A stretch of DNA of 64,000 nt from an uncultured virus (IMG/VR IMGVR_UViG_3300032053_000035) (lineage: Duplodnaviria; Heunggongvirae; Uroviricota; Caudoviricetes), in IMG/VR virus record IMGVR_UViG_3300032053_000035; one strand, written 5' to 3'. Both the position numbers and the translations under genes were made by a program. This document shows positions 11,277 to 54,495 of this stretch, in pieces. Under the pieces are notes generated by a model. It did not search any database and was not told where the DNA came from. It worked only from the letters and a program-made list of their open reading frames with translations. How positions within the stretch are numbered: the first letter of the stretch is position 1; each line of letters starts with the position of its first letter.

Positions 11277-11747
11277 TCAGTCCCCAGCCCAGAATAGGCG
11301 ACCTTGGCCACGACCGTCTTCACATCCTGTCGAGCAACCGCTGGTGCCTTCGACATTGGCCTCGACCCTTTTTCTGGTTCTTTCGCGAAGCCACATTAAC
11401 GCTTCGTCTAGCTTTGTGATTGCCATAGCGTTTTCGCGGCAGGGGAAGTTTTTGTTTAGCCCTTCAATGACCAACTTAGCTGTTTCCACAATGGTGTCAA
11501 CTTGGCAACCGTTGACCCCAACCTCTTTGATTGGTCCATTCTGGACTGTGAACGAAATGCTGTTCTTGTCCTTCCTGAGGTAAATGTGGTTGGTCGGACG
11601 GATTTCTGCTTCGAACCACTCATAGTCCATAGCCCCTGTGCTAACGAACTTCTCTGGGTGCTTATCCCGCAAATCGTCCATAACCACTAAGTCAAATCCA
11701 CCGATCTTACTCACGCCTGCAAGTGTCTCTAATGCCATAGTCATCAA
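11277..11747 (-). CDS. tad1: Tad1-family anti-Thoeris/anti-CBASS nucleotide-sponge protein
   Basis: VQNGPIKEVGVNGCQVD...PCRENAMAITKLDEALMWLRERT..R.EANVEGT matches the Tad1 pattern Q.GPIKE.GVNG...CREN...IT.L..A..W...RT..R...NVEGT. Confidence 0.85.
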   Translation of the reverse strand: MMTMALETLAGVSKIGGFDLVVMDDLRDKHPEKFVSTGAMDYEWFEAEIRPTNHIYLRKDKNSISFTVQNGPIKEVGVNGCQVDTIVETAKLVIEGLNKNFPCRENAMAITKLDEALMWLRERTRKRVEANVEGTSGCSTGCEDGRGQGRLFWAGD

Positions 11748-11756
11748 CTCCTAATG

Positions 11757-14174
11757 TTAAGCCAAGCCGCCTCTAACCTTCATGATGGCCAGCCTTTTTT
11801 CTGGTATTGGGAAGCCGCCAGCCATAGTGTAGCAGTAAATGCCATTACGACTAGACTCATACACGCCTTGGTGAATAGTAAAGCTTCTATTTTCGCCCTG
11901 AAGTATCCGCTCAAGCGTGGAAAACGCTAAGTCTATATGACTTTGTGGCAACAGCGACAGGATCTTCTCTGGTGCACACAAAATGGCAGCTAGGTGGGTA
12001 GACTTAGTAAGATCCACCTCGGTCAGCATTGTCCGCTCCAGGTTAAGCCGCAGGCCGTCAGACAGGTCGGTGTCTTTTTCGTAAGAGAGGAGCTTAGTCG
12101 AGCCAAAGGTGATTAAGCCAGACTCCAACATGGTTGTGTAGTCAGCCCTGTCGAACGTGACATATGAAGACTTTTGAGCCGCCAAAATGTTGAAAACGTC
12201 AAACAGACCTAGTATCTGCTTGTTGGCCACTTGCCAAAAAGACTTAGCGCTGACAGCGCCTAGCATGTTTTGGATAACATCGTTATCTACTATTACGCAA
12301 GGCGAAATCTCCTTAGTTTCTAGCAGCACTTTGATCTTTTGCATGGCTAAATATGCATTGCTTTGGGCTTTCCCGCCTTCTGACTTCTTGGGAAGGGCTA
12401 CAATAAGGCCAATTTTTGGCTCCTTGCCGATCTCCTCCATGTACCTAACAGCCTTTTTGATAAGCGGCAATATGCCACCACTGCCACTGTTGTGTACTAA
12501 AGTTAAGGCGCCATTGCCAGCAAAATAATTTGAATTCCCAGAAACAGTAAAGTCAACAAATTCAATGGCTGATAATTTTTCTATCGCGTCAATAGCGAAA
12601 AGGGCGCCATAAATCTTCTTCAATAAACATTCGTCTTTGAGCAGCGGGGCAAATTCGTCTTCAAACCTACCATATGAGGCATTGCACACATTGTTCGCAT
12701 AGTTATAGTATTTAGGTTTCTGCTTGAACAGTCTTTCTATTTGATCGTACTTAATCGGAAAAATACTATTTGACGTGTACCCAATTGGCATTACGGTCTC
12801 ACTATCTCCAAACTCTTTCCGCAAAGCCTCAGTCAAATTCAGGCAAAATGATGCCTTTGTGTCATTGTCAAAAGCGAATATTCTAAGGCGACCAAGCGGC
12901 CTCTCATTTTTGCGTACTGAAGTCTTAACTGAGTACGTACACTTGATACCATGCGCGTTGCATAGATCTCGTAAACTTTCAACAAATACCAAGTCAACCA
13001 TAGTCAGATCTATTGAGTTACGCTGCGGCCTAACGTAGCCATCAGCACTGTGAACACCCGCCAAGTATGCCAAGAATGATTTTTTATTTAGATCATAAAC
13101 AAACTCAGGGATGACCAGATTGCCCTTAATAGGACGAAGCGGACCATACGCATCAACAAACAAATCTATTAGTTGTTGACCATACGCATACACCTCAAAA
13201 GATGCTTGCGTTTTAGATTTGCTAATTGCTACTGAACTAGCACCAAATTCTAAGCACAACTCTTTAGCTTTCAACAGATTTTCCTCAGACGCGTCATAGA
13301 ACCTAATTACGTTGATTTTGGTTGGGGTAGAATATAAGCCATCTTTGCGCCATTTGAAGTTACCATTACCAGCGAAATACCCGAGAAGCCACAGTTTGTC
13401 CTTGTTATAGTCAACGCCAAATTCTAGCTGCCCTTTATAATGAACCAAAACATCATTAACTGAAAGGTCTTTTGCCAACTTCTCAACAACAGTGTCAGTG
13501 CTGCTATTGTATACAAAAACCGGATGGTTCTCACTACACGTCAAGTGACCAAACCTGGTTGATATTTTGATGGCTGGCTTTGCAGGAACCGACCAAACAC
13601 GCTCAAGTGGCTTCCATTCAACAATGCCATCGGCACGCATGGAAGCCACATTAAGTTCCTCAGTTAAGGCAAAACCGGTCTCACCATTGTCCCCCTCATC
13701 GCATGGCACTTCCTGCGCATAGCTATCCAAGATAGAGCCAGCTGTCATCAACCCAGATGAAGTCAACACCATTGAGGTTGGCGCAACGCAACCCCCTCCG
13801 AGGCTTGATGTAATCATGATGCGGTCGATGTCGTCACCAAACGAGGCTCTCATTAGGTTAAACACCGATTCAGAACCCTTTTCTACGGCCTCCTGACCCT
13901 GGCCCTGGTCCTTCCCAGCGCCGCCTTTGGTAGTGAGAACCAGTTGGCGATTGACCGGAAGTTCCAAACCAAGGAAATCTTGTGCGGTAGTATTGATGGC
14001 ACAAACACGGCGGTAGCCGAGTGAGTAAAAGGTGTCTACCATTCTAGAACCAGCCTGGCCAGCCCCAATAATTCCGAATTTGACAGCCAGCAACTTAGTA
14101 TCTTCTTCTACCGCAATTCCTGATTGGCCAGAGGACAAATCTTCTATATCCGGTAGATCAAAATCGTTTGACAT
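11757..14174 (-). CDS. FtsZ/tubulin-family GTPase (PhuZ/CetZ-like) precursor containing an intein
   Basis: Motifs IIGAGQAGSR, AINT, GGAGKD, SLGGG|SGSG, VDND and the T7-like FDRADY. The predicted spliced product is 371 aa. Confidence 0.9.
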   Translation of the reverse strand: MSNDFDLPDIEDLSSGQSGIAVEEDTKLLAVKFGIIGAGQAGSRMVDTFYSLGYRRVCAINTTAQDFLGLELPVNRQLVLTTKGGAGKDQGQGQEAVEKGSESVFNLMRASFGDDIDRIMITSSLGGGCVAPTSMVLTSSGLMTAGSILDSYAQEVPCDEGDNGETGFALTEELNVASMRADGIVEWKPLERVWSVPAKPAIKISTRFGHLTCSENHPVFVYNSSTDTVVEKLAKDLSVNDVLVHYKGQLEFGVDYNKDKLWLLGYFAGNGNFKWRKDGLYSTPTKINVIRFYDASEENLLKAKELCLEFGASSVAISKSKTQASFEVYAYGQQLIDLFVDAYGPLRPIKGNLVIPEFVYDLNKKSFLAYLAGVHSADGYVRPQRNSIDLTMVDLVFVESLRDLCNAHGIKCTYSVKTSVRKNERPLGRLRIFAFDNDTKASFCLNLTEALRKEFGDSETVMPIGYTSNSIFPIKYDQIERLFKQKPKYYNYANNVCNASYGRFEDEFAPLLKDECLLKKIYGALFAIDAIEKLSAIEFVDFTVSGNSNYFAGNGALTLVHNSGSGGILPLIKKAVRYMEEIGKEPKIGLIVALPKKSEGGKAQSNAYLAMQKIKVLLETKEISPCVIVDNDVIQNMLGAVSAKSFWQVANKQILGLFDVFNILAAQKSSYVTFDRADYTTMLESGLITFGSTKLLSYEKDTDLSDGLRLNLERTMLTEVDLTKSTHLAAILCAPEKILSLLPQSHIDLAFSTLERILQGENRSFTIHQGVYESSRNGIYCYTMAGGFPIPEKRLAIMKVRGGLA
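12489..13790 (-). mobile_element. Intein with LAGLIDADG homing endonuclease (residues 129-562, 434 aa)
   Basis: Starts C-VAPTSMVLT, has block B TCSENHPVF, LAGLIDADG motifs LLGYFAGNG and YLAGVHSADG, and block F DFTV; ends LVHN followed by Ser+1. Confidence 0.92.
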
Positions 14175-28817: not shown

Positions 28818-30044
28818 TTAGTTACCTATTTTTATCGCATAGAACTGTGCATAACCAGAAGGACCGTGACTAGTGTTGGCAAAGCCGACCCCAACAGTGT
28901 CACTCTTCATGACTCTTACTTTTATGGTTTTCGATCCCGTTAGATCTACATAACTAAGGTTTAAACTGTGAATCGCCACATTGACAATAGCAGCAACGGT
29001 TTTAACGGCAATTGATCTTTCGCAGTCGCCTACGATGTTATCACTGCTATCAGTTACTTTTGCCGCAGCTATTTCTAGATCGCCAGCAGCAGCCCCAGTA
29101 CCAATAGTCATGAACATGTTTAGCACAACGTGCCAGACGCCAGCAGGCAATACTATTGTGGCATTTGGCCAGTCGACATACGAAGTTGTGAAGGCAAAGG
29201 TGCTGGCAGACGGCGGCGTTGCCCAAGTAACAACATTAGCTGGCCCACTGGTTCCAGTGCTGCCTTGGACACCAACAAGACCAGTGTGGCCTTGAAAACC
29301 TTGGATGCCTGGCACGCCAGTTTTCCCCGTATGGCCTTGCGGCCCTGTGTTACCGATCGCTCCTGTTGCGCCAATAGGGCCGCCAAGTGGCCCAGTCTCA
29401 CCCTTGACACCCGTGCCGCCTTGCGGACCTAAGACACCGGTGTTACCAGCAATTCCTTGGGTTCCAGTCGTGCCCTGAATGCCAAAGCCGGTAGCTCCTT
29501 GTGCTCCGGTAGGACCACGAAAACCAGTTGGGCCAAGGGCGCCCATTGTTCCGGTAGCACCTTGGACGCCAGTATTGCCTAGTGCACCAGTAAGACCGAT
29601 AAACCCGGTTCCGCCCATTGCTCCTTGCAGCCCGGTAGCCCCGCCTACCCCGGTTGAACCTTGGACGCCGGTTTGACCAACAGGACCACCAAATGGACCG
29701 GTTTGACCTTGTATGCCGGTAACACCTTTTGGCCCGCTTGCAGGACCAGTTGGGCCGCGTAATCCAGTGTCGCCCTGAAGTCCAACCCCAGTTACGCCCT
29801 GCAGTTGGGCTCCTGTTGGACCGGGCAAGCCAGTTTCCCCAGCCACGCCAGTAGTTCCTTGTGCCACGGAGACAAATTGTCCAGTATAGCCGTCCGAGTA
29901 TTTTAACTCTCCCGTGGATGGGTTTAACCATATTTGGCCGGTTTCAGACGACAGAGGGTTTGCAGAGCGTATTTGTATTCCGCGTTCTTCTACAGCTTCC
30001 TCGGTTCGTCCTAGGTGCGTCTTGTCGGCCATTGTCGTCTCCAT
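28818..30044 (-). CDS. Collagen-like fibre protein
   Basis: About 200 aa of G-X-Y repeats dominated by GxT/GxQ; C-terminal beta-sandwich head (LPAGVWHV). Confidence 0.9.
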   Translation of the reverse strand: METTMADKTHLGRTEEAVEERGIQIRSANPLSSETGQIWLNPSTGELKYSDGYTGQFVSVAQGTTGVAGETGLPGPTGAQLQGVTGVGLQGDTGLRGPTGPASGPKGVTGIQGQTGPFGGPVGQTGVQGSTGVGGATGLQGAMGGTGFIGLTGALGNTGVQGATGTMGALGPTGFRGPTGAQGATGFGIQGTTGTQGIAGNTGVLGPQGGTGVKGETGPLGGPIGATGAIGNTGPQGHTGKTGVPGIQGFQGHTGLVGVQGSTGTSGPANVVTWATPPSASTFAFTTSYVDWPNATIVLPAGVWHVVLNMFMTIGTGAAAGDLEIAAAKVTDSSDNIVGDCERSIAVKTVAAIVNVAIHSLNLSYVDLTGSKTIKVRVMKSDTVGVGFANTSHGPSGYAQFYAIKIGN

Positions 30045-30236
30045 AGGCTGTCGTTCTATTGGTAAAATAGCCTGTCATTAAGTTAATTGCTGAAAACCTA
30101 CTTATTGATGGTTAATATGCCAAAAAAAGCATTGCCACTTGGACTGTCTTGCCAACTGCACAAGAGCAAACCGCTGCCAGTAGTTATTTTTGACACTTAG
30201 TGGTATTTATCAAAACCTGAAGCGCTAGGAGCCAGT

Positions 30237-30632
30237 ATGGAAAAGAATGAGCTACACGAAAAGCTAGTCAACGCTGGCATAGAAGTTAAGAACAATTGTG
30301 TGCGTAAATCAGACGTTGTGCTAGCTGAGCAAATACTGAACACAATCGACGGCTGGGAACACGATAGCAACAGTGGCTCATGGGTTTACGACCCAGAAGG
30401 TATCCTATTGGAGGATGGCACAGCATCAGTGCCGACAGTTGTGTTGGAAAATGGCGGCTACAACTATTACTGCCGAGGTGACGACTACCCATCTGGTTCC
30501 GTTACAACAAAAGAATTTATCGACTTAGACATGAGCGAAGAAGAAGCAGAGGAAGCTGCACTAGCAGCGGCAAAAGAAGCCGCTCTGGAAGGCAGTGAAA
30601 ACATGGACCCTGACACACAAAATATTTGGTAA
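30237..30632 (+). CDS. Acidic hypothetical protein with N-terminal tag motif
   Basis: LVNAGIEVKNNCVRKSDVVLAEQILN; AGGAG RBS. Confidence 0.8.
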   Translation: MEKNELHEKLVNAGIEVKNNCVRKSDVVLAEQILNTIDGWEHDSNSGSWVYDPEGILLEDGTASVPTVVLENGGYNYYCRGDDYPSGSVTTKEFIDLDMSEEEAEEAALAAAKEAALEGSENMDPDTQNIW

Positions 30633-30770
30633 AGTAGCTTTACTTTTTGATTTTGCTGATAATAAACGAAATCGGTACGCTGAGGGAAACGCTAAACGCT
30701 ATTCCCCTCTTTAGAAACCACTTTTTTACGTCGCTATACCAAATAATCAGGCCCACCTATTTTCCGGCAA

Positions 30771-30992
30771 TCAACGTGCTATGCGCTTTCCCCGGCGCAA
30801 ACTAGCCTTATATCGGTGTATGCACAAGCGGCAAATTTTTGGATGGTCTGATCGGCTGGCATTTTGTGCTAACTGCGCAAAACTGCCACTACAATCTAAA
30901 CACACCGAAAGCTCTAGCAGCTTAGCGTTGCTCTTACAGCATCCGTTTATTAAATCGATAGCTTGTTGGAGTTCTGGATCTGCGGTTGCCAT
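30771..30992 (-). CDS. Small Cys-rich (CxxC...CxxC) protein
   Basis: Start ATG 30992 with AAGGAG RBS; CLDC and CRLC. Confidence 0.65.
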   Translation of the reverse strand: MATADPELQQAIDLINGCCKSNAKLLELSVCLDCSGSFAQLAQNASRSDHPKICRLCIHRYKASLRRGKRIAR

Positions 30993-31270
30993 GTTAATCT
31001 CCTTTGCGTGAAGTGGTATCCTACCACGCCTGACGCTTTGTGTCAAGACTACCTGTTGATCAGTACGGTGCCAATTAACCTTAACCGGCACCACAGGACC
31101 GATGCGGACCGCGCCAGATAAGTAACGCTATTTTATGTCATTCACAAAGTCACCAACGGAGTAACGTGATGCCAACACACTAGCCAGCTTTTTGCCTAAC
31201 TGTTTCAAAGGCAGTTGGGCCATAGCCTCGCGACTATGGCCCAACTACGTGCTGACTGCCCAAACGTCAC

Positions 31271-31555
31271 TTATGCCGGTTGTGCCGCTTCCGCTTCTGA
31301 TGATGCGCTAGACGCCTTAGACTCATTAACTGACGCTGAGTCAGCCGTGTCACTATCAGCCAGCTTAGCCGCTCTCTGCCAGTTGTTGGACAACAGGTAG
31401 GTTTTTAGGTTATACTTAGCCAGCATGCGTTGGAGCGTCCTTATTCCAATGCCAAGCCCCCTGGCCGTGTGAGTACGGTTGCCTTTATAGTACTCAAGAG
31501 CTTTGACAGCATTTGCACGAACAACTTCTTTCTGCGTCGAAAATGTAGAATTCAT
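31271..31555 (-). CDS. Fis-family helix-turn-helix protein
   Basis: ALEYYKGNRTHTARGLGIGIRTLQRMLAKY is the Fis/NtrC-type HTH_8 pattern; low-complexity S/A/E tail. Confidence 0.8.
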   Translation of the reverse strand: MNSTFSTQKEVVRANAVKALEYYKGNRTHTARGLGIGIRTLQRMLAKYNLKTYLLSNNWQRAAKLADSDTADSASVNESKASSASSEAEAAQPA

Positions 31556-31656
31556 CAAAAAGTTCCTTTGATAGGTGCCAGATAACACTGTTTGACCTTC
31601 TTTTACAAGCAATGCCAAATCCTATATGCATACGTACCTTAATGTCAGCACAGAAA

Positions 31657-32679
31657 TTACAGGCGCCCCAGGGCCGTGTCAAGCCCACGCAGATGGTGCG
31701 GAAGTGCATGTCCTAGCACAATCATTCCAATGAGAAAGAGCACTCTCACCAGAAGCGTTACTTTGCCAGTCGTTAGACTGCTTATAACGCTACGGTCGGT
31801 TAGGATGGCATGCTCGCGTGCTGTCATTTGGTCCGATATATCATTAGCCTTTTTGCGCAGCTCCGCAAGCCTTGTCGCCCTACTCACCGAGTCCAGCCCA
31901 TCCCGCTCCAGCATGATTCTCTTGTGCTCGGCAGCGAGGCGCAGGTATTCAGGATTCGCCGAGGCTGCACTTTTTTCTACTACTGAAGCATCTCTTTGCC
32001 GCATCGCTTCTAGTGAATAAAGGTCAGCACAAACAAAGCCTGTCAGAACTAGGCCTCTTATCAATTTGGCATCGATGAAAAATATAAATGCCATAGGCAA
32101 AAGAATAAGCAGCATTGCCGGTACGACCCCGTATAACGGCACTGTGGCTATAGCAAGCTGCCACGCTATAGCGCCGCATAAAGCAATAATAAGAGTTATG
32201 CTAAGGATTCGCCCGGCTAAACCAAGATAACACCGAGCCTCTATCATACCGCCTGACGTCTTGTCTTTGCTGGGTTCGGCTGATCCAGAATCAGCCCACG
32301 ACCTGTCCGGCATTTCTATAACCACGCCATCGGCTAGGATGGAAAGCTTGCTGACCTCCAGTGCCCTCATTCTGGTTATCTCCGCCTGGATCTCTGCCGG
32401 AGTGGGTTCGTAAGGCTTTGGGTAAAGTGGTTGTCCCTTGTGGGCCTCTTTCGGCTCTAGGATAGGCTCCGGCTGATCCAGGTTTAGCTGCGGTTCAGCC
32501 AAAACCAGTGCCACAGCTTCGGGCCAGGCTTGCTCAAGCCAGGCCATAATAGCACTCTCTGGCACGTGCGTACCGCGCCGATAGTTCACCCCGCTGCGGG
32601 CCGCTTTTCTCTCTTTAACGTTGTTGATTGACTGCACAATACGTGCAATTCTTATGTCATCCATCCAATTCCTCGTCAA
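31657..32679 (-). CDS. Membrane protein with coiled-coil
   Basis: Three hydrophobic segments, a coiled-coil and a C-terminal TM helix. Confidence 0.7.
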   Translation of the reverse strand: MTRNWMDDIRIARIVQSINNVKERKAARSGVNYRRGTHVPESAIMAWLEQAWPEAVALVLAEPQLNLDQPEPILEPKEAHKGQPLYPKPYEPTPAEIQAEITRMRALEVSKLSILADGVVIEMPDRSWADSGSAEPSKDKTSGGMIEARCYLGLAGRILSITLIIALCGAIAWQLAIATVPLYGVVPAMLLILLPMAFIFFIDAKLIRGLVLTGFVCADLYSLEAMRQRDASVVEKSAASANPEYLRLAAEHKRIMLERDGLDSVSRATRLAELRKKANDISDQMTAREHAILTDRSVISSLTTGKVTLLVRVLFLIGMIVLGHALPHHLRGLDTALGRL

Positions 32680-32682
32680 CCT

Positions 32683-32710
32683 TTATCGGACCTAGTACTA
32701 CCAGCCTTTA
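32683..32710 (-). promoter_or_regulatory. Sigma28 (FliA/SigD)-like promoter
   Basis: TAAA-N16-TCCGATAA upstream of 31657..32679. Confidence 0.5.
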
Positions 32711-33169
32711 ACCAATTTTTATATTATTAGCCTCAGTAGCTCTTTGTTTTGCTTCTTTGCTGGCTATGATGCTGCCTTTGGCGCCATGATGCCCTCTAAC
32801 CCACTTCCATGTTATTATGTGCCGGTTAACGTGAGTTAATAACTCTTCCCAAAGCTCTTTGTGTTTAATCACTCCCTTTTTGGCGGTGCGCCAATTGCTC
32901 TTTTCCCACGCTCTCACCCAACCTTTACAAAACCCGTCAATTATGTATCTACTATTGGTGGCAACGGTGACTTTTGCTGGCCCTGCTATGCTTTTTAGAC
33001 CCTCAAGAACGGCGGTCATTGCCATTTGATCACTGCTTGTTAACCTACTGCTAGCCGACAACATCAACTCCGTCTCGCCATTGGTAACCAAGGCGGCCCA
33101 ACCTCCTGGCCCTGGGTCCCCGAAACAGCAGCTGACTGCCGATATTGTCACTTCTTTATTTTTTTCCAC
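32708..33169 (-). CDS. RNase HI homologue with all catalytic acids substituted
   Basis: The RNase HI scaffold is present (CFGDPGPGGW, TNSRYI, W...W...W, ELW, WKWVRGH), but D10/E48/D70/D134 are V/A/N/S. Confidence 0.85.
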   Translation of the reverse strand: MEKNKEVTISAVSCCFGDPGPGGWAALVTNGETELMLSASSRLTSSDQMAMTAVLEGLKSIAGPAKVTVATNSRYIIDGFCKGWVRAWEKSNWRTAKKGVIKHKELWEELLTHVNRHIITWKWVRGHHGAKGSIIASKEAKQRATEANNIKIG

Positions 33170-33209
33170 AACAACTCCCTAAGCCAAAAACAACATACCT
33201 ACTTGGTAG

Positions 33210-33264
33210 TTTTATGTGTCGTGGGTAATCAGAATGTAGTCGGTATGACGCTGCCTAGTCATAT
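33210..33264. repeat. Direct repeat copy 1 (~55 bp, promoter/stem-loop-like)
   Basis: TTTTATGTGTC-GTGGGTAATCAGAATGTAGTCGGTATGAC-N4-CCTAGTCATAT, near-identical to 34178..34238. Confidence 0.85.
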
Positions 33265-33313
33265 GAACGTTTCACGGCTCAGAACTGAGCAAAATTAGCA
33301 CATGGGCAACTAG

Positions 33314-33538
33314 CTATCTTTGCCTCTTCAATTCTGCTTCGTATTCAGCTTTCTTGTAATAAAAATCTTGAACAGCAAGATCATAAACATCTCTTGCTGA
33401 ATTTATTTTTGCCTGGTGCATAACGAATGCGGGAATAATAGGAAGATCAATTTCAACCCTGGCGAATATTTCAGAACACGTAATCACACATTTATTTGAG
33501 GCAATCATAGCTACTCTAAGTTCTTGCAATTTTTCCAC
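33314..33538 (-). CDS. Hypothetical protein
   Basis: 74-aa ORF with GAGG RBS in an AT-rich stretch. Confidence 0.65.
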   Translation of the reverse strand: MEKLQELRVAMIASNKCVITCSEIFARVEIDLPIIPAFVMHQAKINSARDVYDLAVQDFYYKKAEYEAELKRQR

Positions 33539-33707
33539 ATCTCACCTCTTAAGATGTCTATAAGGCAATAAATAATAAAAATAAAAGCTATAAGCAAATC
33601 CATACAACCATCCGCTCTCGACGCTTTGCTAATGTTATTTCACGTTCTGCAATAGTCCGCCTATGTGCCTGTTCATCTCATTAATTAGTTTGATAAATTT
33701 AGCCATG

Positions 33708-34139
33708 TCAAAAATCTCCAGGAGCCACTTGCAAGCAAGTTATGCCCAAGCTTCGGAACATTGCCACGGACTGATTCCGGTCATCAAAGGCCATAGCAAT
33801 GTTATCTATTCCAATCTCTCTTACCCACGCCTCTTTCAATATGTAATCACTATTGAAATTGCCATTTGGACGCATAAACATTTCATGCCATGTTACGTCG
33901 TAAGTATCTAACCATTTAATGGTCTTGTCCTTAACTTGGTCAGACCGACCTGTCAGAATAAAAATTTCATAAGCATAAGAGCGGAGGCTGTTGGCCAAGC
34001 TTATAATTGGAAAATTTGGCTCATCCATATCACATGCGTCGTAGTATGCGTCCCAATTCGTAGGTTTTTCGATAAAGTGTTGGCGATGCTCAGTCAAAGC
34101 CAAGGTTCCGTCCAGATCAAAAACAACAATATTAGACAT
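33708..34139 (-). CDS. HAD-family phosphatase (T4 PseT/PNKP phosphatase-domain-like)
   Basis: VFDLDGTL, ILTGR, MRP...D..LK and FDDR motifs. Confidence 0.88.
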   Translation of the reverse strand: MSNIVVFDLDGTLALTEHRQHFIEKPTNWDAYYDACDMDEPNFPIISLANSLRSYAYEIFILTGRSDQVKDKTIKWLDTYDVTWHEMFMRPNGNFNSDYILKEAWVREIGIDNIAMAFDDRNQSVAMFRSLGITCLQVAPGDF

Positions 34140-34177
34140 TCTTACTCCTTATTTTGGGCCTCATCCTCTTTCAGTCT

Positions 34178-34238
34178 TTTTATGTGTCGTGCGGTGGGTA
34201 GTCAGAATGTAGTCGGTATGACAGGGGCCTAGTCATAT
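34178..34238. repeat. Direct repeat copy 2
   Basis: TTTTATGTGTCGTGCGGTGGGTAGTCAGAATGTAGTCGGTATGAC-N5-CCTAGTCATAT. Confidence 0.85.
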
Positions 34239-34239
34239 T

Positions 34240-34727
34240 TGCATTATAACACTATCCTCCTCGATCCAACAGCCAAGGCGCTCAGTCTGCTCCGCCTGGT
34301 GGTTTAGGCTCTCAATCTCAGAAGTTGCTCCGCCAAAGTGGTTTCTCATCGGTTTAAAGAGAAGGGTTAAGGGTTCCCGGTTTGTCCTTCCGGTTTCAAA
34401 AAGTAACTCAGGAGGCACTGGCTTCTTAATTTCGGCTTCCAAACATCTTTTCTGGTTTCCACAAGATTGGCCTTTCCTGGCTTCCTTGGTTTCCAACCCG
34501 CTTCGGCCCGCAGCTAAATTCCCAGAAGAAGTAGGAGTACCGAGCCGCAGCATCCGGCGCGAAGCGGCGGTGCTAGCGGGTTGGACTCCACTTCTACTGA
34601 GGAAGGGGATGGGCGAAGCCCAGCCCATTTATTAGTAAAATTGGATTCTATCCGATCTGTTTTCCTAGCAAATACTTTTTTGGGCCGCCGGGGCAGCCTC
34701 AATTCTTCTCTTAATTTTTCCAGTCTA
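34240..34727. other. Probable non-coding region, candidate replication origin
   Basis: No convincing gene; many GG(C/T)TT motifs and GCGAAGC-type mini-hairpins directly downstream of the primase-domain gene. Confidence 0.3.
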
Positions 34728-37700
34728 TCAGGCTGCCTTGCGACTTGCTCGATTGGCGCCAGCTTCTGTTCCAGTAAGGAATACTGACTCCCTAAGGCGC
34801 CTGAAGTATTTAACCGAGTACTGCCTACTGTCATAATAGCCATGTTTAAGTAAAATCTTTAACGCTCGGCTAAGAATCTTAAATCTGAGGTCAAAGTCTT
34901 CCGGTACTATTTCTCGGTTGATGTGAACCAGCGTGTGCGCATCCCTGGCGGCAGCAAGAATGTCGGTGCCACCGTCGGCTCCGGTCGCCGAGATAGCTGT
35001 GGCTGCCAGGGCGACCCTGAGAGAAACGGTTGAATAGCGGGAGAGGAGGCTCTCTAGCTTGGAACGAAGCGGCCCATTTTCTGCCCTTGCCCAAAAGGCG
35101 CGAGTACCAGTCCAGGTAGAAAAGGCACCGGTCACGCAGGCCTCAGTAAAGTCCGGATGGTCCCGAAGAATGTACATGGCTTCGGTGACACCGGCTAGGT
35201 CTGGAAGAGACAGCTGGCGGCGGTTCCCTACTTTTTGCAGTCGGTTAACTTCGGTGCCGAGGCCGGTCTGCTGTGGTGGCAGCACTTTTCCTGCTACCTG
35301 CCTATTGACTTCTGCCGCCATACCTGCCAGCTGCTCACGGACATCATCAGTTATGAGCGAGAGTAGATTTGGATGTTGGCAGAGTTGGTAGAGGGAGATG
35401 GACATCCACCGGACGCTGGACAGGCCTTGCGAGGAGTAAGCTCCGTCTTGGAATGGGTCGTCCTTGCCGAACCATTTCCGGTTGTGCTCCTTTTGCTCCT
35501 TGCCGACTGCGGCCATAAAGGCTGCCTTGCGGGCCGCTTTAGCCTTGTTTGACGCTCTGAGGTAGCCAAGCTCTGTGTAGATTAAACCGGCGTTGGAAAA
35601 GTCAGCTAGGTACTCGTAACCGTGGCCGTTGGGCAGGGCGTCGGCGCTAATAATAAATGGCATAGTAAGCATCACACCGCTTGGGCTGTCCCTTAGCATA
35701 AACCCTGGGCGCGACTGCACGGGAATGGCGTCGCCGATCTTGATAACTTCGCCAGCCTTAACCGCGCTGGCTCCGCCCTCGGGGTCAGAAAGCGGGTGGC
35801 GACAAGGGGAAATTAGGCAAGAGGCAGAGATTCTAACTGCCGTGGCTAACAGCTCCATAACCTTGGCTCTAGGCTTATTATTGAGCATGCCTGGCGCCCA
35901 TACGTCTGCCTGTTCTACTAGGCAGGAGTGAAGATCGGTCCCAACGTTGGCGTACCTGGTAAATGGCAGATGGTCGAGCCTGAACATGAGGTCGGCGTGA
36001 GAGACTGCTGGCAACTCTGGCGTAGCTAGTACAGCGGCGGGAACGTACTGCTTTCCTGGAAAAATTTGGCTTTGGCCATCGCAAATCCGGCACAACTCCT
36101 TGAACGTAACGTCGTCCCTACTTGGCTTTAGCTTAGGGTCATAACTTCCTGAGTAACGAGGACCAAGAAGCTCCCGTATGTCCAGGTAGAACAGGTAGAC
36201 GGAGTCGGTTGACGACATGTCGTAACGCTTGGATGCCAGCTGTACAATGGTTCGCAAAAACAAGTGCATTTTGCCGGTTAGATTGAGCACCATTTGTCCG
36301 TCTGGCGTTTCCAGCATAGACAATATGCCACGCCTGGTAACAGTGTCTCTAAGGTAAAGCAATTGGCGGAGCGATGTATTTTTGGTGATGCCAAGATCGC
36401 AGCGTGCTCGGTTCTTTCTTTCAAGTTCCCTAAATGGCGACATTACTTTCCCCAGTCTTGTATTTTTCTTCTCGTCCAGGCAGAGGTAGGCCTTAATTGT
36501 TGCCATCCACTTTGACTGCTCCACAGCACGGCGAGCCTCTTCCGTTGTTTCGGCTGCCAAGCGAGCTGCCATTAGAGCTGGCGAATTGTAGTAAATGGCT
36601 GGTGCTACCGACTTTACTGCCTCCTGAAAGGGAACGAAGGCTGGGGTGCCAGTGGTGTGCGACTTAGTAATACGAAAGGCCGCCATGCGGTCCAAAACGG
36701 AGGCGGCGGCGTTGGCATAAACTGTGGTGACCATATGGCCGTTCTTGGGATTCACAAAGCCTGGCAGGGCTAGGATGCGAAGCGGGTCCAGCACATTAAG
36801 GTCGGAGCCAACCGTGGTAGCCACTAGCCTCTCTAAGGCACACATATAAACAAAATCTGGCGCATCAACTGAGATTCCGTCCAAGGCTTCGCCAACGACA
36901 GTCTCCTTGGTTCCCTCTCCCCCAGCTTTAAATGCTACCTGTTTTTGCCATGGAGTAATGCCAGGACTGACGGGGGCGATCCGGATGAAGACGTGATATT
37001 TGCCTGGGGACGTTTCGTTAATAGCCGATACGTATTGCCAGAGTGAGCCAAAAGTGGTGCGAAAGCAATCAATAACTAATGGCAACCTTTTCGCTGGGAC
37101 AACATGGCTTAGGTCCAGTGGTTGATCAAAGTCAAAGGCAAACATACGCTTAGCTAGGAAGTCCTGAGTTCTTACTTTTCTGTCAGGCTTCATAACGTCG
37201 CCATCACTACCAAACTGCGCTTCGTACTTTTGCTTGTACCAAGACTCTTTGGACTCGCTTGGTGGCTTGCCACCGGCTTGCCTTTTCTCATTGGCCTTAT
37301 CCAAGAATCTGACGGCTTTTCGCTTGCCAATTTCGATGTGTGGCGTGACGGTCTGTACAAAGAAACACGCCTTCATGCCGCAAATATTCTTAACGACGGC
37401 AGATCTGACACTGCCAATGTCGGCGGCACCGCGAACCTGAGACTTAGCCTCTACGTGGTCCGTCTGTGCGTCTCCTGAGTACATTGGCCCGTAGAGGACC
37501 GGGACACAGCGAAGGTTGACTGAGTGACGCACAGATGGGGAGCGGTTGGACAAGGACAGCAGTTCGTCCTGTTGCTGCAAGCTGTTTATTGCCAGTTTCA
37601 CTCTAGCTTCAAAAGGTGCCCTTACTCGTTTCTCGTACTGCCCAAAGGTTTCGAGGCCGTTTCGTTTGTACTGCGGTTCTTCGGCACAGTCGTAAATAAA

Positions 37701-37832
37701 CATGTCTTTGAGAGTGCTGGCCGGGTACCAGGAGTTGTGTTGGGTAGAAACCAGCGTTTCCCTGTCCATCTTGGCTTTTTGGTAAGCGGTAGCACCAGAA
37801 TAATTGCCAGCTTGATTTGCTGCGTCCATCAT
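34728..37832 (-). CDS. Large replication protein with RepB-type (AEP superfamily) primase domain
   Basis: FAFDFD (DxD), NETSPGKYHVF and D...D..RILALPGFVNPK are RepB primase motifs; the remaining ~600 aa are unassigned. Confidence 0.75.
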   Translation of the reverse strand: MMDAANQAGNYSGATAYQKAKMDRETLVSTQHNSWYPASTLKDMFIYDCAEEPQYKRNGLETFGQYEKRVRAPFEARVKLAINSLQQQDELLSLSNRSPSVRHSVNLRCVPVLYGPMYSGDAQTDHVEAKSQVRGAADIGSVRSAVVKNICGMKACFFVQTVTPHIEIGKRKAVRFLDKANEKRQAGGKPPSESKESWYKQKYEAQFGSDGDVMKPDRKVRTQDFLAKRMFAFDFDQPLDLSHVVPAKRLPLVIDCFRTTFGSLWQYVSAINETSPGKYHVFIRIAPVSPGITPWQKQVAFKAGGEGTKETVVGEALDGISVDAPDFVYMCALERLVATTVGSDLNVLDPLRILALPGFVNPKNGHMVTTVYANAAASVLDRMAAFRITKSHTTGTPAFVPFQEAVKSVAPAIYYNSPALMAARLAAETTEEARRAVEQSKWMATIKAYLCLDEKKNTRLGKVMSPFRELERKNRARCDLGITKNTSLRQLLYLRDTVTRRGILSMLETPDGQMVLNLTGKMHLFLRTIVQLASKRYDMSSTDSVYLFYLDIRELLGPRYSGSYDPKLKPSRDDVTFKELCRICDGQSQIFPGKQYVPAAVLATPELPAVSHADLMFRLDHLPFTRYANVGTDLHSCLVEQADVWAPGMLNNKPRAKVMELLATAVRISASCLISPCRHPLSDPEGGASAVKAGEVIKIGDAIPVQSRPGFMLRDSPSGVMLTMPFIISADALPNGHGYEYLADFSNAGLIYTELGYLRASNKAKAARKAAFMAAVGKEQKEHNRKWFGKDDPFQDGAYSSQGLSSVRWMSISLYQLCQHPNLLSLITDDVREQLAGMAAEVNRQVAGKVLPPQQTGLGTEVNRLQKVGNRRQLSLPDLAGVTEAMYILRDHPDFTEACVTGAFSTWTGTRAFWARAENGPLRSKLESLLSRYSTVSLRVALAATAISATGADGGTDILAAARDAHTLVHINREIVPEDFDLRFKILSRALKILLKHGYYDSRQYSVKYFRRLRESVFLTGTEAGANRASRKAA

Positions 37833-37879
37833 AACTCCACATCAACTTAGAACAGAAATAGTTACCGCATTTTTAGGGA

Positions 37880-38563
37880 ATGCTAGCATTCCATGCACAT
37901 GAAAAGTATAAGCATTTGTCGGTCATAAAATATGAGGACTACTACGAAGGGAGTAAACAAGTGGACCAAAGATATCACAACACCCAGTTTGTTACGCATA
38001 AGTCGCATGAAATCGAGATACCAAGGTGGTACGAAGGACAGAAACGGTTCATTGAAGAGTGGATGACCGACATACCCAAATATGCTAAAATACTAGATAT
38101 TGCCTGCGTGGGCTTTAGACACTTCCGCGAACTTGGATATGAGAACGTGACAGGCGTAGGGCGCGAGGCTAGCAAGCAGGCGTTGGACAATAAGTATGGC
38201 TACTTGGTATTAGCGCTTGATATGCACAGGCTTGGTGCTATTCCTGACGATAGCTACGACGTGGTTTACGCTAGCCACGCTATTGAGCACTCACACAATC
38301 CTATCTTGGTGGTGGAGGGCATTAGGCGCATTCTAAAGCCTGGCGGGAAACTGGTTGTGGTGCTGCCTTACCCGGACGCTGGTCCTGACAATGCTCATTG
38401 TGGCAAGTTTGCATTAGGAACCAATAACAGCGACAATGCAATATCGGTTAGAAACTTCTTTTGGCTAAGTGGCTTTAAGATCTACGAGTGGAAGGTGGAT
38501 TCGTTTAGGGAGCCAGAAGTGTGGTTGAAAATGGAAAATGCAAAAGACCTAGGACAAGCGTGA
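37880..38563 (+). CDS. Class I SAM-dependent methyltransferase
   Basis: ILDIAC, DMH.L..PDDSYDVVYASHAIEH and RILKPGG. Confidence 0.85.
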   Translation: MLAFHAHEKYKHLSVIKYEDYYEGSKQVDQRYHNTQFVTHKSHEIEIPRWYEGQKRFIEEWMTDIPKYAKILDIACVGFRHFRELGYENVTGVGREASKQALDNKYGYLVLALDMHRLGAIPDDSYDVVYASHAIEHSHNPILVVEGIRRILKPGGKLVVVLPYPDAGPDNAHCGKFALGTNNSDNAISVRNFFWLSGFKIYEWKVDSFREPEVWLKMENAKDLGQA

Positions 38564-39036: not shown

Positions 39037-39480
39037 ATGAAAATAACGAAGGTGGCGTGCGTAAGCAACGTCACAGGCTACATTATTGGCATAGTCTTGC
39101 CTGGAATAACAACTGGTAAGTGCTACGACGCTACTATTAATGGGCGTTATTACGAGGTAAGAAATGATAATAACGAAATAGCCTTGTATAATGGTGACTT
39201 TTTCCAAGTCCTGGAAATTGATTTCTGCCAGAGCTTAGCTAATGCGAAAATGGATCTTGAGTCTGTAATAGCTTCGTGGGAAGTTACAAGGGAGTCAATG
39301 CTAAAACTGGTTGACATTGCCGAAACGGCGTGGACGGCAGCAGCTGCGGAAGAAGCTAGTTCTTATGACCGCCTTCTCTCTGCCCTTTGCTTACTTGATC
39401 AGGGCGACCGTCAGCGGAGAACGGCAGAGGACAGGTTAAAACAAATCAATGTGAAAATAAAGGAGAGAAAAGATGGTTGA
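39037..39480 (+). CDS. Hypothetical protein with C-terminal coiled-coil
   Basis: ORF overlapping the start of rmlC. Confidence 0.7.
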   Translation: MKITKVACVSNVTGYIIGIVLPGITTGKCYDATINGRYYEVRNDNNEIALYNGDFFQVLEIDFCQSLANAKMDLESVIASWEVTRESMLKLVDIAETAWTAAAAEEASSYDRLLSALCLLDQGDRQRRTAEDRLKQINVKIKERKDG

Positions 39481-39991
39481 CAAGGTGAACATTGACGAGA
39501 TTTCTGGCGCGTTCATGTTATCGAGGCCAACCTTTGCCGACGCCAGAGGGGAATTTTCTGAGCTATCCCGTACAGATTGGGATCTGCCGGAGTTTAAACA
39601 GACCAACATAGTGAAGAGTAATGCCATGGTGGCAAGGGGGCTGCATTACCAGGCCGAGGTGCCGCAGGGTAAGTTAGTCACATGTGTCAGCGGATCAATT
39701 ATAGATTTTGTATTAGACCTAAGGCCCTCTTCGCCCACACGTGGTACCTTGTACCACGTCCGCCTAAGACCTAACGGGCATAGCATTTATGTGCCAGAAG
39801 GGTGTGCTCATGGTTACGTCACGATGGAACCAGCCGTTGTGCATTATGCATGCACAGAGTTGTACGTCGGCGCATGGAACAGCGGGTACAATATGGCAGA
39901 TTTAATGCGGCGCAACAACATACCGTATATGTTAGCGTTACAATTTAGTAAGCAAGACGAGGGGTGGCCAAAGTATGATCAAAATGAATGA
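39473..39991 (+). CDS. rmlC: dTDP-4-dehydrorhamnose 3,5-epimerase
   Basis: DARGEFSE, RGLHYQ...QGKLV, DLRPSSPT and YVPEGCAHG. Confidence 0.92.
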   Translation: MVDKVNIDEISGAFMLSRPTFADARGEFSELSRTDWDLPEFKQTNIVKSNAMVARGLHYQAEVPQGKLVTCVSGSIIDFVLDLRPSSPTRGTLYHVRLRPNGHSIYVPEGCAHGYVTMEPAVVHYACTELYVGAWNSGYNMADLMRRNNIPYMLALQFSKQDEGWPKYDQNE

Positions 39992-40364
39992 GCTTTCTGG
40001 TGTCTGTGTGCTAGTGGTAGACGATTCGGAAGACCTAGCTGAACTAACCAGACATTGGTTTGCCAGCGTTGGTGCGAAAGTTGTAACAGTATCTTCTGGC
40101 GCGGAAGCGCTAGTGGCCGTAGCCTCTCAGCAATGTCACCTAATCGTTATGGACATTGGGATGCCATTCCTTGACGGTTTCGCAGCAGCCGAACAAGTTA
40201 GAGGACTTGGCTACCGCATGCCAATCATAGGGGTAACTGCAAGCGTTTTTGACGACAGCAGGTGGACACCAAACTTTGATGCCCATTTCTTAAAACCGGT
40301 TAATAAACAGTTATTGATTGCTGCTGCTCATGCTCTTACTCATAAAACCTTGCCGACTGCCTAG
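39975..40364 (+). CDS. Single-domain response regulator (CheY-like receiver)
   Basis: VLVVDD, MDIGMP.LDG (phospho-Asp), GVTA and LKP. Confidence 0.9.
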   Translation: MIKMNELSGVCVLVVDDSEDLAELTRHWFASVGAKVVTVSSGAEALVAVASQQCHLIVMDIGMPFLDGFAAAEQVRGLGYRMPIIGVTASVFDDSRWTPNFDAHFLKPVNKQLLIAAAHALTHKTLPTA

Positions 40365-42822: not shown

Positions 42823-43083
42823 ATGACAGCAGAAAAAGAAAGCGCAGTTAAGAAGAGATCTGCCAAGCGTAAAGCCTACCGTCAGGCGAACAAGGAAAAA
42901 ATAGCCACCGTGAACAGAGCTTACAACGAGGCGAACAAGGATAAGATAGCTGCCGAAAAGAGAGCCTACCGTCAGGCGAACAGAGAGAAAATGGTTGCAT
43001 ACCAAAAAGCCTACCGTCAGGCGAACAGAGAGAAAATGGTTGCATACCAAAAAGCCTACCGTCAGGCGAACAGGAAAAGATAG
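42823..43083 (+). repeat. 45-bp tandem repeat encoding KAYRQANREKMVAYQ-type units; probable truncated endonuclease-associated repeat protein
   Basis: About 4.5 units of 15 aa; the last unit has lost bases and stops early. Confidence 0.75.
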
Positions 43084-43113: not shown

Positions 43114-43896
43114 CTATCCGTAGGGAACCATTTTTGCACCTTTCGCAACATCTTCTATGGCTGGGAGGCGGCCAACCCTGAGTGAATTAAGTCTTATCAT
43201 CAGGTTTGTCTCTGCCGAGAAGTTGTCTAGCTTCTCTTTTGTCCATTTCTTAAGGCTTTTCCTGAGTTTACTGGCACTGGTTTCGGCCTCCATAGCCTCT
43301 ATATTTTTGTACGCTTCGATTAGGCGCTTGGTATTGTCTTCGTCAATTTGTTGCTGTGCTAGCTTGGCCCTTAGTACGTTAAGCCTTGCTAGGAAATCAT
43401 CATCATATGGCAGCTTCTGTAGGCGCTTAGCAGTCCACTTCCTAACTCCATTTTTGAATTTACCTGGGTTTGTCTCAGCCTCTAAGGCTTCCAAGGATCT
43501 TAGGGCGTCTCTCAGTTTCCTAGTGATGTTCTCGGCGCTAGTTTTTTGGTCGTGGCAGGCTAAGCATAGTTTTTGAAGTTCTGCCTTGCTTTGCACAAAC
43601 GTTCTGGCATAATAGGTGTTGAAATCAACAAATCCAACCTCTGGGTCCACAACTGGCACTATGTGGTCAATAGCCACTTTGCCGCGTTTCCACTTGCCAC
43701 AGCAAGCGCAGAGGTGCTCAGCGGCGTCTATCTTGTGTCTTTCGCCATTTTTGAGGTATTGAGGAACCTTACGAAAGTTTTCCTCTCTAGTCATGGTTAT
43801 GACTAGCGGGGAACGGGAGAAAGCGCGACGGATGGCGTTTCTTACTGATCCTTCCGGGTTGTAGGCGCCTTTCTTTTTTTTCTTATCAGTTGTCAT
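43114..43896 (-). CDS. HNH endonuclease with duplicated C-terminal helical module
   Basis: CACCG...IDHIVP...LQKLCLACHDQKT; two copies of EA.EAET...K.....KWT...L...RLN.LR. Confidence 0.85.
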   Translation of the reverse strand: MTTDKKKKKGAYNPEGSVRNAIRRAFSRSPLVITMTREENFRKVPQYLKNGERHKIDAAEHLCACCGKWKRGKVAIDHIVPVVDPEVGFVDFNTYYARTFVQSKAELQKLCLACHDQKTSAENITRKLRDALRSLEALEAETNPGKFKNGVRKWTAKRLQKLPYDDDFLARLNVLRAKLAQQQIDEDNTKRLIEAYKNIEAMEAETSASKLRKSLKKWTKEKLDNFSAETNLMIRLNSLRVGRLPAIEDVAKGAKMVPYG

Positions 43897-52530: not shown

Positions 52531-54495
52531 TCACTTCTCAGGCTCCCAGTTCATATACTCAGGGTGTTCCTTACCAAGCCGATTCCATTTGTTGAGACAA
52601 GCTGTGCAGGTCGGTAGGTCTTTGGTCCACTGAGTGCGGTCATCCATAATGTTCCTGACCTTCTTACAAAGAGAGCGACCTGTGTCCCAATTGAAGTCCG
52701 GAGTCACAAGCACCGCATGAGTTAGCATCTCATTGCCTGGACGCTCAACCTTATAGGCACCTCCAAAGACCCCAGTCGTTATGAGTTTAGTCTTTTCGGT
52801 TTCGCGCAGAGCTAATACTTGGTTGATTATTTTCAAACTGTCCTGGCGCAATCGCCCATCAAAGCCCTTATTAGCGATTAACCCAACAAGGTTCTTTTTG
52901 CTTAATATCATATGGCTAAGAATTATTTCTGATTCGTCATGCAATTCTGAACACTGGGCAACCATGTTAATATTGACAATCACATCACTTATGCCTGGGG
53001 TACATTCAAAAATAGCCCCGTATGGATAACCAGTGTCAAACATGAAGTTAGATGCCACCGCCTTGCTTTCGGACCAGGATTCTACAGGCTGGGTTCTTAG
53101 GTGCTTACCGGCGTCCAGAGCTGCCACAGTTTCTTCGCTGGCGGCCACACCACGATAAACTTTTCCTCCCAGGACTTTACGGTATTTAACAGGCAGCATG
53201 TTTTTCAAGGCTAGCATTTCTAACCGTACTTGGTCATTTGAAGAGCTTTCTACCCAGCGGCAAATCGTAGAAAGTTCATCGTCGGTGAGAGCTTCATTTT
53301 TACTTCCGGTAAGGTTGGAATTACCAGTGTTGTCGCTATCCCACTTGGTAGTATCAGCAGATGAGCCAATGAAACCGTGCCCTTCTTGTTTATTAATCTC
53401 CTCAGCCAAGTCCTTATACAGGTCTCCGTGATTGACGTTTTCCTTATCAGCAGTATCGCCAAACATTTCGTATATGTAGTAATGAACAACTTCATGCGCC
53501 AGAATCTGGCGTAAATCTTCCGACACCAGATACTTGCTGTTTAGCGTGATATACGTGTGACCGGTTTCATTGTTATGTCTCGTGGAGGCTACAAATGGAG
53601 GAGAGTGTATAATGACAACTTCCGGGCGGCCTTCGCAATCAGGGAAATATTCGCGCAGTAGCTCGGCAGCTAGTGCACTGGCCTCGTAGCCTAGGCTGTG
53701 TGCTGTTATTTCCAGGTCCGTAAAGTCTAATAGGTGCATATCGAGATTAAGTTGCTCATCTCGCAGTGGGAGCTTACTGCCAGTAGATGTTATTAGGTAG
53801 GTGGTGCCGCCAAACGACGTCTCCAGCCCAACAATATTGTCTTTGCTACCTATTGTGATGCCCGTGTCCAACCCAAGTACTCTGATTCTCTTGTAGTTAT
53901 CAAAGTAGGCTGGGAAGGTGGAGGTAGAAAAGTCATAAGTCTCATTGTTGTCTGTAATTTGCTTAAATTTTAATTGCTTGCCTTTAGAACGTAGCTGCGC
54001 TAATTTTGGCATAGTTTGCCAAATGACGTCATCAGCAAATTCCATTATAAGCTCATCATCACAAAACACCTGCATTTTGCCACCGAAAGCCACGTTGGTG
54101 GCTTCTGATTCGTGTTGTGCAAGAAGCCACCCAAACAGAATCGACTCTGAATAATCATCCATGGGAGGAGGTTGGTCTGGGTTAAAATACACCAGTTCGA
54201 GGTGGTCAAATTCGCCATCAGGATCACCAAGCGAGGTCAGTGGTAGCCCAACCTCAATGTCAACTCTGTAGACTCTATTGTCATAAGCGTCAAACAAGTG
54301 CGCTATTTTGGCAATCTCCGTTACACCTGACTCTTCTCTCAGCTCTCTTCGCAGGGCAACTTCTTCCGTCTCCCCGTCGTCTACTTTGCCGCCAATTAGT
54401 CCATACTGACCCAGAGCCGTAACGCCAAACAGAAGCCTGCCATGTCTGTCAACAGCAATCGCTCTCACTCGTTGCATGGCAGACTCCGTGCTCAC
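52531..54495 (-). CDS. Multidomain protein: Nudix hydrolase + SprT-like zinc protease + R-S-E ART + C-terminal Cys/His finger
   Basis: Nudix box GGKVDDGETEEVALRRELREESG; LAHEVVH...HG; VYRG...SWS...ESE; HAV...LC...CTAC. Confidence 0.8.
   Translation of the reverse strand: MSTESAMQRVRAIAVDRHGRLLFGVTALGQYGLIGGKVDDGETEEVALRRELREESGVTEIAKIAHLFDAYDNRVYRVDIEVGLPLTSLGDPDGEFDHLELVYFNPDQPPPMDDYSESILFGWLLAQHESEATNVAFGGKMQVFCDDELIMEFADDVIWQTMPKLAQLRSKGKQLKFKQITDNNETYDFSTSTFPAYFDNYKRIRVLGLDTGITIGSKDNIVGLETSFGGTTYLITSTGSKLPLRDEQLNLDMHLLDFTDLEITAHSLGYEASALAAELLREYFPDCEGRPEVVIIHSPPFVASTRHNNETGHTYITLNSKYLVSEDLRQILAHEVVHYYIYEMFGDTADKENVNHGDLYKDLAEEINKQEGHGFIGSSADTTKWDSDNTGNSNLTGSKNEALTDDELSTICRWVESSSNDQVRLEMLALKNMLPVKYRKVLGGKVYRGVAASEETVAALDAGKHLRTQPVESWSESKAVASNFMFDTGYPYGAIFECTPGISDVIVNINMVAQCSELHDESEIILSHMILSKKNLVGLIANKGFDGRLRQDSLKIINQVLALRETEKTKLITTGVFGGAYKVERPGNEMLTHAVLVTPDFNWDTGRSLCKKVRNIMDDRTQWTKDLPTCTACLNKWNRLGKEHPEYMNWEPEK

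Follow-up and report, generated by a model that had tools for sequence, protein, structure and literature searches.

A phage gene for an RNase HI-fold protein was found to have lost every acid of the catalytic tetrad and to persist as an intact reading frame. The gene lies in a 64-kb stretch of viral DNA, analysed as a whole and called here the window, and the product of its 153-aa RNase HI-like ORF is called the window protein. This product is very likely a selected, catalytically dead derivative of RNase HI, and probably a kept non-cutting protein rather than a broken gene. The fuller statement, in which the maintained pseudo-enzyme would also bind RNA:DNA hybrids, is a serious but tentative reading.

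By the predicted functions of its genes, the window is a novel, large, tailed-phage-like and jumbo-like genome, with Baseplate J, a collagen-like tail fibre, an SLT lysin, a clamp loader and both RNR subunits. Jumbo-phage clamp loaders are 27-35% identical to that of the window, the baseplate protein has a single match (27%), and megablast of 30000-38000 against GenBank phages gave no nucleotide match. Near-identical DNA occurs in sediment metagenomes, where 16 runs contain at least half of the sampled words; these runs possibly derive from one campaign, and one of them is possibly the source sample. No RNA run was present among the listed sequencing runs with matching DNA.

Several other loci of the window were recorded on the way. 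An 805-aa ORF at 11757-14174 (minus strand) has a weak match to tubulin/FtsZ GTPase (E 5e-4, below the cut-off) and contains an intein with LAGLIDADG; it would be a phage tubulin-like gene interrupted by a LAGLIDADG intein. The 156-aa ORF at 11277-11747 (minus strand) matches the Acb2/Tad1 hairpin domain PF24729 with 27.3 bits against a cut-off of 27, and is a candidate cyclic-nucleotide sponge directed against CBASS or Thoeris. Five tandem units of 45 nt, 62-74% identical to the reference copy, are found at 42828-43073, just upstream of an HNH-endonuclease-like ORF (43114-43896). At 39473-40364 (plus strand) a dTDP-4-dehydrorhamnose 3,5-epimerase gene overlaps the gene of a stand-alone response-regulator receiver domain, and at 52531-54495 (minus strand) a 654-aa ORF combines an N-terminal NUDIX domain with a SprT-like metalloprotease domain.

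Profile comparison and structure prediction agree that the window protein is an RNase H-fold protein. Pfam RNase_H (PF00075) matches its residues 6-144 over profile positions 3-140 of 141 (E 1.3e-24), a full-length domain match scoring 87.4 bits against a cut-off of 25.8, and phrog_531 'Rnase H' matches with E 4.4e-30. A total of 47 distinct PDB sequences are matched; T. thermophilus RNase H (1ril) ranks first (E 6.7e-30), and the E. coli enzyme with its mutants comes next (E about 1e-23). The AlphaFold2 model, predicted from a 55-sequence alignment with mean pLDDT of 94.6 and pTM of 0.90, displays the strand and helix order of RNase HI. Foldseek places E. coli RNase HI at the top for this model (TM 0.87-0.88, rmsd 1.3-1.4 A, 141-142 columns), and crystal structures of the E. 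coli mutants E48A, D134A/N and D10A are among the best matches. The protein-atlas comparison returned ordinary RNase H clusters only. The gene and the features around it are listed in Table 1; an AGGAG-type motif precedes the phosphatase gene just as a Shine-Dalgarno-like motif precedes the RNase HI-like gene.

Table 1. The RNase HI-like gene and neighbouring features of the window.
Feature	Position	Strand	Remarks
340-aa protein, hydrophobic membrane-like segments	31657..32679	minus	begins 28 nt past the RNase HI-like stop; relatives 83-84% identical
RNase HI-fold ORF	32708..33169	minus	153 aa, GTG start; D10V, E48A, D70N, D134S, N16D, N44S, N45D (E. coli numbering)
Ribosome-binding region	33170..33185	minus	GGGAG, Shine-Dalgarno-like, 5 nt before the GTG start
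Upstream element, copy 1, ~55 nt, TATGAC-N8-GTCATA palindrome	33210..33264	minus	ends 40 nt before the RNase HI-like start
74-aa ORF directly upstream of the RNase HI-like gene	33314..33538	minus	no family match
HAD phosphatase, PNKP-type, phosphatase domain only, DLDGT motif	33708..34139	minus	PF25109 E 9.5e-29; phrog_415 E 1e-42
Upstream element, copy 2	34178..34238	minus	ends 38 nt before the PNKP-type phosphatase start
ORF of 1034 aa, putative AEP/RepB-like primase	34728..37832	minus	protein-atlas features 0.90-0.92

The residues V12, A50, N72 and S137 of the window protein align to the catalytic acids D10, E48, D70 and D134 of E. coli RNase HI, and D18, S46 and D47 align to N16, N44 and N45. 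This placement agrees among HMMER alignments, a 14-sequence MAFFT alignment and a mapping of positions against all collected relatives. An earlier sequence-only reading of the DNA had named the same seven replacements and had described an intact ORF with the GPGG loop, the Trp-rich basic protrusion and WVRGH retained; the alignments reproduce the former, and all of the latter are present in the 153-aa protein, which carries GDPGPGGW and WVRGH. In active enzymes, D10, E48 and D70 are each individually essential, and N16, N44 and N45 touch the RNA strand, as seen in RNase H-hybrid structures. With D10, E48 and D70 lost, the window protein should therefore be incapable of two-metal cleavage, and the prediction that it cannot use the DEDD mechanism is well supported. 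Since N16, N44 and N45 are replaced as well, partly by acids, hybrid recognition is uncertain and may be lost.

Conservation was assessed against 57 canonical stand-alone relatives of 135-175 aa. D10, E48 and D70 are kept in 57 of 57 and D134 in 94.7% (about 54 of 57). A total of 34 positions are at least 90% conserved in this set, and 19 of them are kept both in the window protein and in its one diverged relative, the 150-aa protein P0002. The kept positions, which include C15, PGPGGW, T44, M49, A53, Y75, W84, W88, W93, L106, W107, L110, G126 and A140, fall in the fold core, the GPGG turn or the Trp protrusion. In both proteins a further 11 are replaced; the four catalytic acids, both residues flanking D10, N16, T43, N44 and N130 belong to these. 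The other four (N45, S71, N100 and H124) are changed in one protein alone, S71N and H124Q being losses in P0002 only. The losses thus listed map largely to the surface that the RNase HI literature treats as catalytic and substrate-contacting. The basic Trp-rich protrusion keeps W84, W88, W93 and W107, with seven Lys and Arg in residues 84-107 of the window protein and six in P0002. Canonical enzymes have a median net charge of +2; the window protein (pI 9.6) reaches +8 and P0002 +4. NCBIfam NF001236, the RnhA equivalog model, has a cut-off of 160 bits; the window protein (126.1) and P0002 (128.7) both fall below it, and the canonical relative P0003 scores 206.8. Judged by tetrad, equivalog score and contact residues, all of which fail, the window protein is not a functional RnhA. 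In the alignments and the predicted model, the whole catalytic and RNA-contact surface is gone, and the hydrophobic core, GPGG turn and basic protrusion are intact.

The dead form has a narrow distribution. In a search of 5.8 billion proteins, the cluster of the window protein itself (P0001) was found on 14 contigs, the longest of 78,913 nt, together with a single diverged relative, P0002, which is 71-72% identical and occurs on 6 contigs. P0002 has A/A/N/S at D10/E48/D70/D134 and D/S/N at N16/N44/N45. The next match in that search, P0003, is 50% identical and all others are at most 44% identical; DEDD is kept in P0003 and in every more distant relative. The inactivation is thus shared by a diverged homologue, P0002. 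P0003 and P0189 sit on chromosomes of Solirubrobacterales MAGs (loci L090-L093, 79-88% identical). When 1.84 billion representatives were searched exhaustively with HMMER (E up to 0.001), 12,882 matches were obtained, of which P0002 was the sole close one and canonical RNase HI proteins were the next-best with a single domain; a fused or longer form of the dead clade was absent among these representatives of all lengths. Only two lineages of the dead form are known from these searches (two 90%-identity clusters, one 50% representative). In GenBank phages, RNase HI homologues occur in 953 records; none reaches 60% identity to the window protein, and the best is 36.8% identical. Searching viral contigs with the window protein and P0002 did not recover the DNA of the P0002 gene, the relatives there being only 29-37% identical, and a metagenome scan with an overly general pattern gave canonical RNase HI in at least 598 stretches, with 45% as the best identity among the matches listed. 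A quick maximum-likelihood tree groups the window protein with P0002 (SH-aLRT 100) and nests them among canonical enzymes. The stem of the dead clade measures 1.03 changes per column against a median tip of 0.46, and the tips within the clade measure 0.22 and 0.13.

Two kinds of unusual gene products were seen in these searches. The gene calls P0185 (105 aa, 2 contigs) and P0187 (102 aa, 1 contig) are shorter and both start at the internal Met49; they span both dead RNase H clusters and could be alleles with a truncation, contig ends or choices of the gene caller. Many of the best-scoring representatives are proteins of about 300 aa with two RNase HI domains, one D-E-D and the other degenerate. 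Examples are P0038, P0043-P0045, P0048, P0049, P0053 and P0054, from sources including bacterial MAGs and Tritrichomonas foetus, and P0064 and P0145 are among the few that appear degenerate in both domains.

The loss of the four acids is common to the window protein and P0002, and the inactivation therefore predates the split of the two lineages. Since then the proteins have accumulated 43 differences over 150 aligned positions, with internal gaps and stops absent. The 43 replacements have a mean BLOSUM62 score of +0.67, and 81% of them score 0 or higher. For comparison, the window gene was mutated neutrally, 3000 times over, until its product had diverged as far as the two proteins have (kappa 3, about 72 substitutions); the simulated mean was -0.43 +/- 0.24, none of the 3000 runs reached the observed value, and 7.1% of the runs were free of stops. 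The best-conserved stretch between the two proteins is the basic protrusion, or handle, with residues 76-90 identical at 13 of 15. Direct codon evidence is thin. Near the start region, a contig from run X19 has a 30-letter end that codes for residues 9-17 of P0002; counted by eye, four synonymous and four non-synonymous changes separate it from the window. In the gene of the 340-aa neighbour, the 2523-nt contig of the relative shows 59 differences from the window over 409 positions and 56 over 313, and 26 of the 40 differences listed, out of 149, fall at third codon positions. This third-position excess indicates that synonymous divergence between the lineages is high. Compared with other proteins of the region, the dead RNase HI (71%) is no more diverged than the adjacent phosphatase, whose relatives are 74, 70, 65, 61 and 60% identical, and somewhat more than the 340-aa neighbour (83-84%). 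On reasonable but incomplete evidence, these patterns point to a fold held by purifying selection and an old active site that is still relaxing (S71N and H124Q in P0002). The suggestion that retention was selected and not neutral, made from the sequence alone, thus gains from the losses shared with P0002 and from replacements that appear conservative beside the neutral simulation.

On the minus strand, the genes are arranged in the order 1034-aa protein, phosphatase, 74-aa ORF, dead RNase HI, 340-aa protein and Fis-type HTH protein, and no second RNase HI was found within the 64-kb window. The 28-nt gap between the RNase HI-like and 340-aa genes implies that these two are probably co-transcribed. 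The gene of the 1034-aa protein is 1.5 kb upstream of the dead RNase HI gene. Its protein-atlas neighbours are 'putative RepB DNA primase', AEP-TOTE and RepB_primase clusters, and DxD (FAFDFD) and GxxH (GKYHVF) motifs can be read in it. The protein has no Pfam, PHROG, NCBIfam or PDB match, and as a query it found no related phage among viral contigs. Its assignment as an AEP/RepB-like primase is a lead only, and it is in this form that the nearby primase of the sequence-only reading stands. A relative of the phosphatase (P0215, 60%) and the shortened P0002-cluster member P0187 each have a longest contig of 3890 nt, a hint of conserved synteny but no proof of it.

The sequence-only reading had also assigned the RNase HI-like gene a repeat element of its own upstream. 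The 55-nt element is real, and it does not belong to this gene alone, for a second copy, with insertions of 5 nt and 1 nt relative to the first, precedes the phosphatase gene. The two copies are the only ones in the window, and the 21-nt core is expected 0 times in shuffles. A sigma-70 promoter at the element was considered and rejected, as the scan gave no matching minus-strand site; the spacing from the -35-like to the -10-like sequence is 12 nt in one copy and 17 nt in the other. For these two reasons no more is claimed for it than that it is an upstream element common to both genes. A role as their joint promoter or operator is presumed, and its presence before both genes suggests co-expression of the RNase HI-like and phosphatase genes. 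Rfam gave no match in 30000-38000.

Three further observations concern this region. At 32220-32307, a diverged relative has 80 unrelated letters replacing 86 nt of the 340-aa gene (runs X16 and X17), which looks like a variable linker of the 340-aa protein. A contig of run X18 matches the window from 32772 up, in the 3' part of the RNase HI-like gene. Ahead of this coordinate it carries over 255 letters that do not match, and it may represent another genomic context or a chimera. The 2-kb bin at 32001-34000 has the strongest negative GC skew of the window (-0.151) and also contains the cumulative-skew minimum, which may reflect only gene orientation and composition.

We propose that the RNase HI fold would have been acquired from a bacterial-type RnhA, and that an ancestor of at least two phage lineages would then have lost the whole metal-binding tetrad and most RNA-strand contacts. 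The same ancestor would have retained the hydrophobic core and the GPGG turn, together with the 'handle' that binds duplexes, the Trp-rich basic protrusion. The resulting non-cutting protein may still bind nucleic-acid duplexes; primers, R-loops and other RNA:DNA hybrids are the most plausible ligands, and binding would go through the conserved basic protrusion and a groove made less acidic (net charge +8, pI 9.6). Within the phage replication module, the window protein would occupy such hybrids or compete with host RNase HI for them. This binding or shielding mechanism is, taken by itself, slightly more tentative than the statement as a whole. A stronger version, in which the protein acts as a dominant-negative mimic of host RNase HI by binding hybrids uncut and so makes the infected cell resemble an rnhA-null one, is unlikely, if worth stating.

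Because N16, N44 and N45 are replaced, other readings stay alive, namely a decoy or anti-defence factor, a replisome scaffold and, less likely, a relic. In the first of these, which we regard as somewhat less likely again than the dominant-negative mimic, the dead fold would imitate host RNase HI and titrate a partner or block a hybrid-dependent defence; retron msDNA maturation, defence reverse transcriptases and RNA-guided Argonautes are the targets envisaged. The fold surface is conserved while the asparagines contacting nucleic acid are lost, as expected of a decoy, and the Acb2/Tad1-hairpin-like ORF at 11277-11747 would be a second candidate anti-defence gene of the phage. Disturbed msDNA, however, tends to trigger retron toxins rather than to disarm them. 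The introduction of 10.1101/2023.03.15.532788 describes digestion of the retron msd RNA by RNase H, which counts for the decoy. Against it, the anti-retron protein Rad, which the accessible text describes as a primase/helicase plus Toprim/RNase-domain protein, works differently, by degrading the ncRNA, and is in that description unrelated to RNase HI. Neither a link of the window protein to retrons nor the origin supposed in the sequence-only reading finds support. The most conserved region is the basic handle, and nucleic-acid binding therefore fits better than a decoy.

It is improbable that the protein is a non-catalytic subunit of the replisome, that is, an RNase H-derived adaptor on polymerase, primase or SSB. 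This reading, which likens the protein to degenerate RNase H-like domains acting as scaffolds, accords with clustering beside the putative primase, with a clamp loader and RNR in the same window, and with the many proteins of about 300 aa that pair active and degenerate RNase HI domains. The Rhc protein of Goslar is, in the portion of its description available to us, a phage RNase H protein serving as a DNA polymerase subunit (PMC13648698). According to that same portion, however, Rhc requires RNase H catalysis and carries a clamp-derived fusion, whereas the window protein stands alone with 153 aa and dead-clade fusions are absent among the 1.84 billion representatives.

More doubtful still is a functionless relic, an inactivated gene yet to be disrupted or deleted. 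The narrow distribution in two 90%-identity clusters, the long stem branch in the quick tree and the active-site residues still being lost in one lineage are what a relic might leave. Yet the 29% amino-acid change since the split, which the inactivation predates, is conservative and free of stops and internal indels, none of the 19 conserved positions away from the catalytic and contact surface has been lost from either protein, and divergence is no greater than in the adjacent phosphatase. Phage genomes, moreover, quickly delete useless DNA. That the window protein is still a nuclease with a relocated active site can practically be dismissed: three non-canonical carboxylates (D18, D47 and E139) do lie near the old site, but P0002 has only D18 and E139 of the three and has lost H124 too, and RNase HI cannot do without any one of D10, E48 and D70.

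Set beside known systems, the proposed hybrid-binding pseudo-enzyme is closest to bacterial RNase HI (RnhA; 1rch/2rn2, 1ril), with which it shares fold and length at 31-36% identity to the solved enzymes, as well as the GPGG turn, the basic protrusion and, in the window protein, H124. A Gly-80b-type 'KGW' insertion is shared with T. thermophilus RNase HI, and the closest active relative, 50% identical, is encoded on Solirubrobacterales chromosomes. Unlike RnhA, it is phage-encoded and has DEDD and N16/N44/N45/N130 all replaced. Engineered dead RNase H (E. coli D10/E48 mutants, human D210N) serves as a probe for hybrids and R-loops, and likewise combines the RNase H fold with absent catalytic acids. 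Those probes, however, retain the asparagines that contact RNA and are changed at one or two acids, whereas the whole groove of the window protein is remodelled, so that its hybrid specificity is not assured. The two-domain proteins P0038, P0044 and P0045 also keep a degenerate RNase HI copy without acids; in them this copy shares its chain with an active domain, whereas the window protein is alone and has no active copy in the 64-kb window. The RNase H-clamp protein Rhc of Chimalliviridae, compared by its partial description only (PMC13648698), is again a phage RNase H-type protein and is tied to the replisome of large phages. It differs in having a clamp-derived DNA-binding domain fused and in requiring catalysis, the window protein being stand-alone with its acids absent.

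Literature searches outside the subscription journals found no account of a phage RNase HI that stands alone and is catalytically dead. Few nucleases have been studied as thoroughly as RNase HI, of which laboratories make dead versions to detect R-loops. If a phage has evolved and conserved such a dead version naturally, it would mean that viruses exploit the device that laboratories do, and it would give a simple test system for how phages handle RNA:DNA hybrids, whether primers, R-loops or defence intermediates. If true, an rnhA-null-like state of the infected cell would mean that R-loops and primers are stabilised for the phage, or that hybrid intermediates of defence are masked, and a dominant-negative mimic of RNase HI would constitute a new class of host-takeover pseudo-enzyme.
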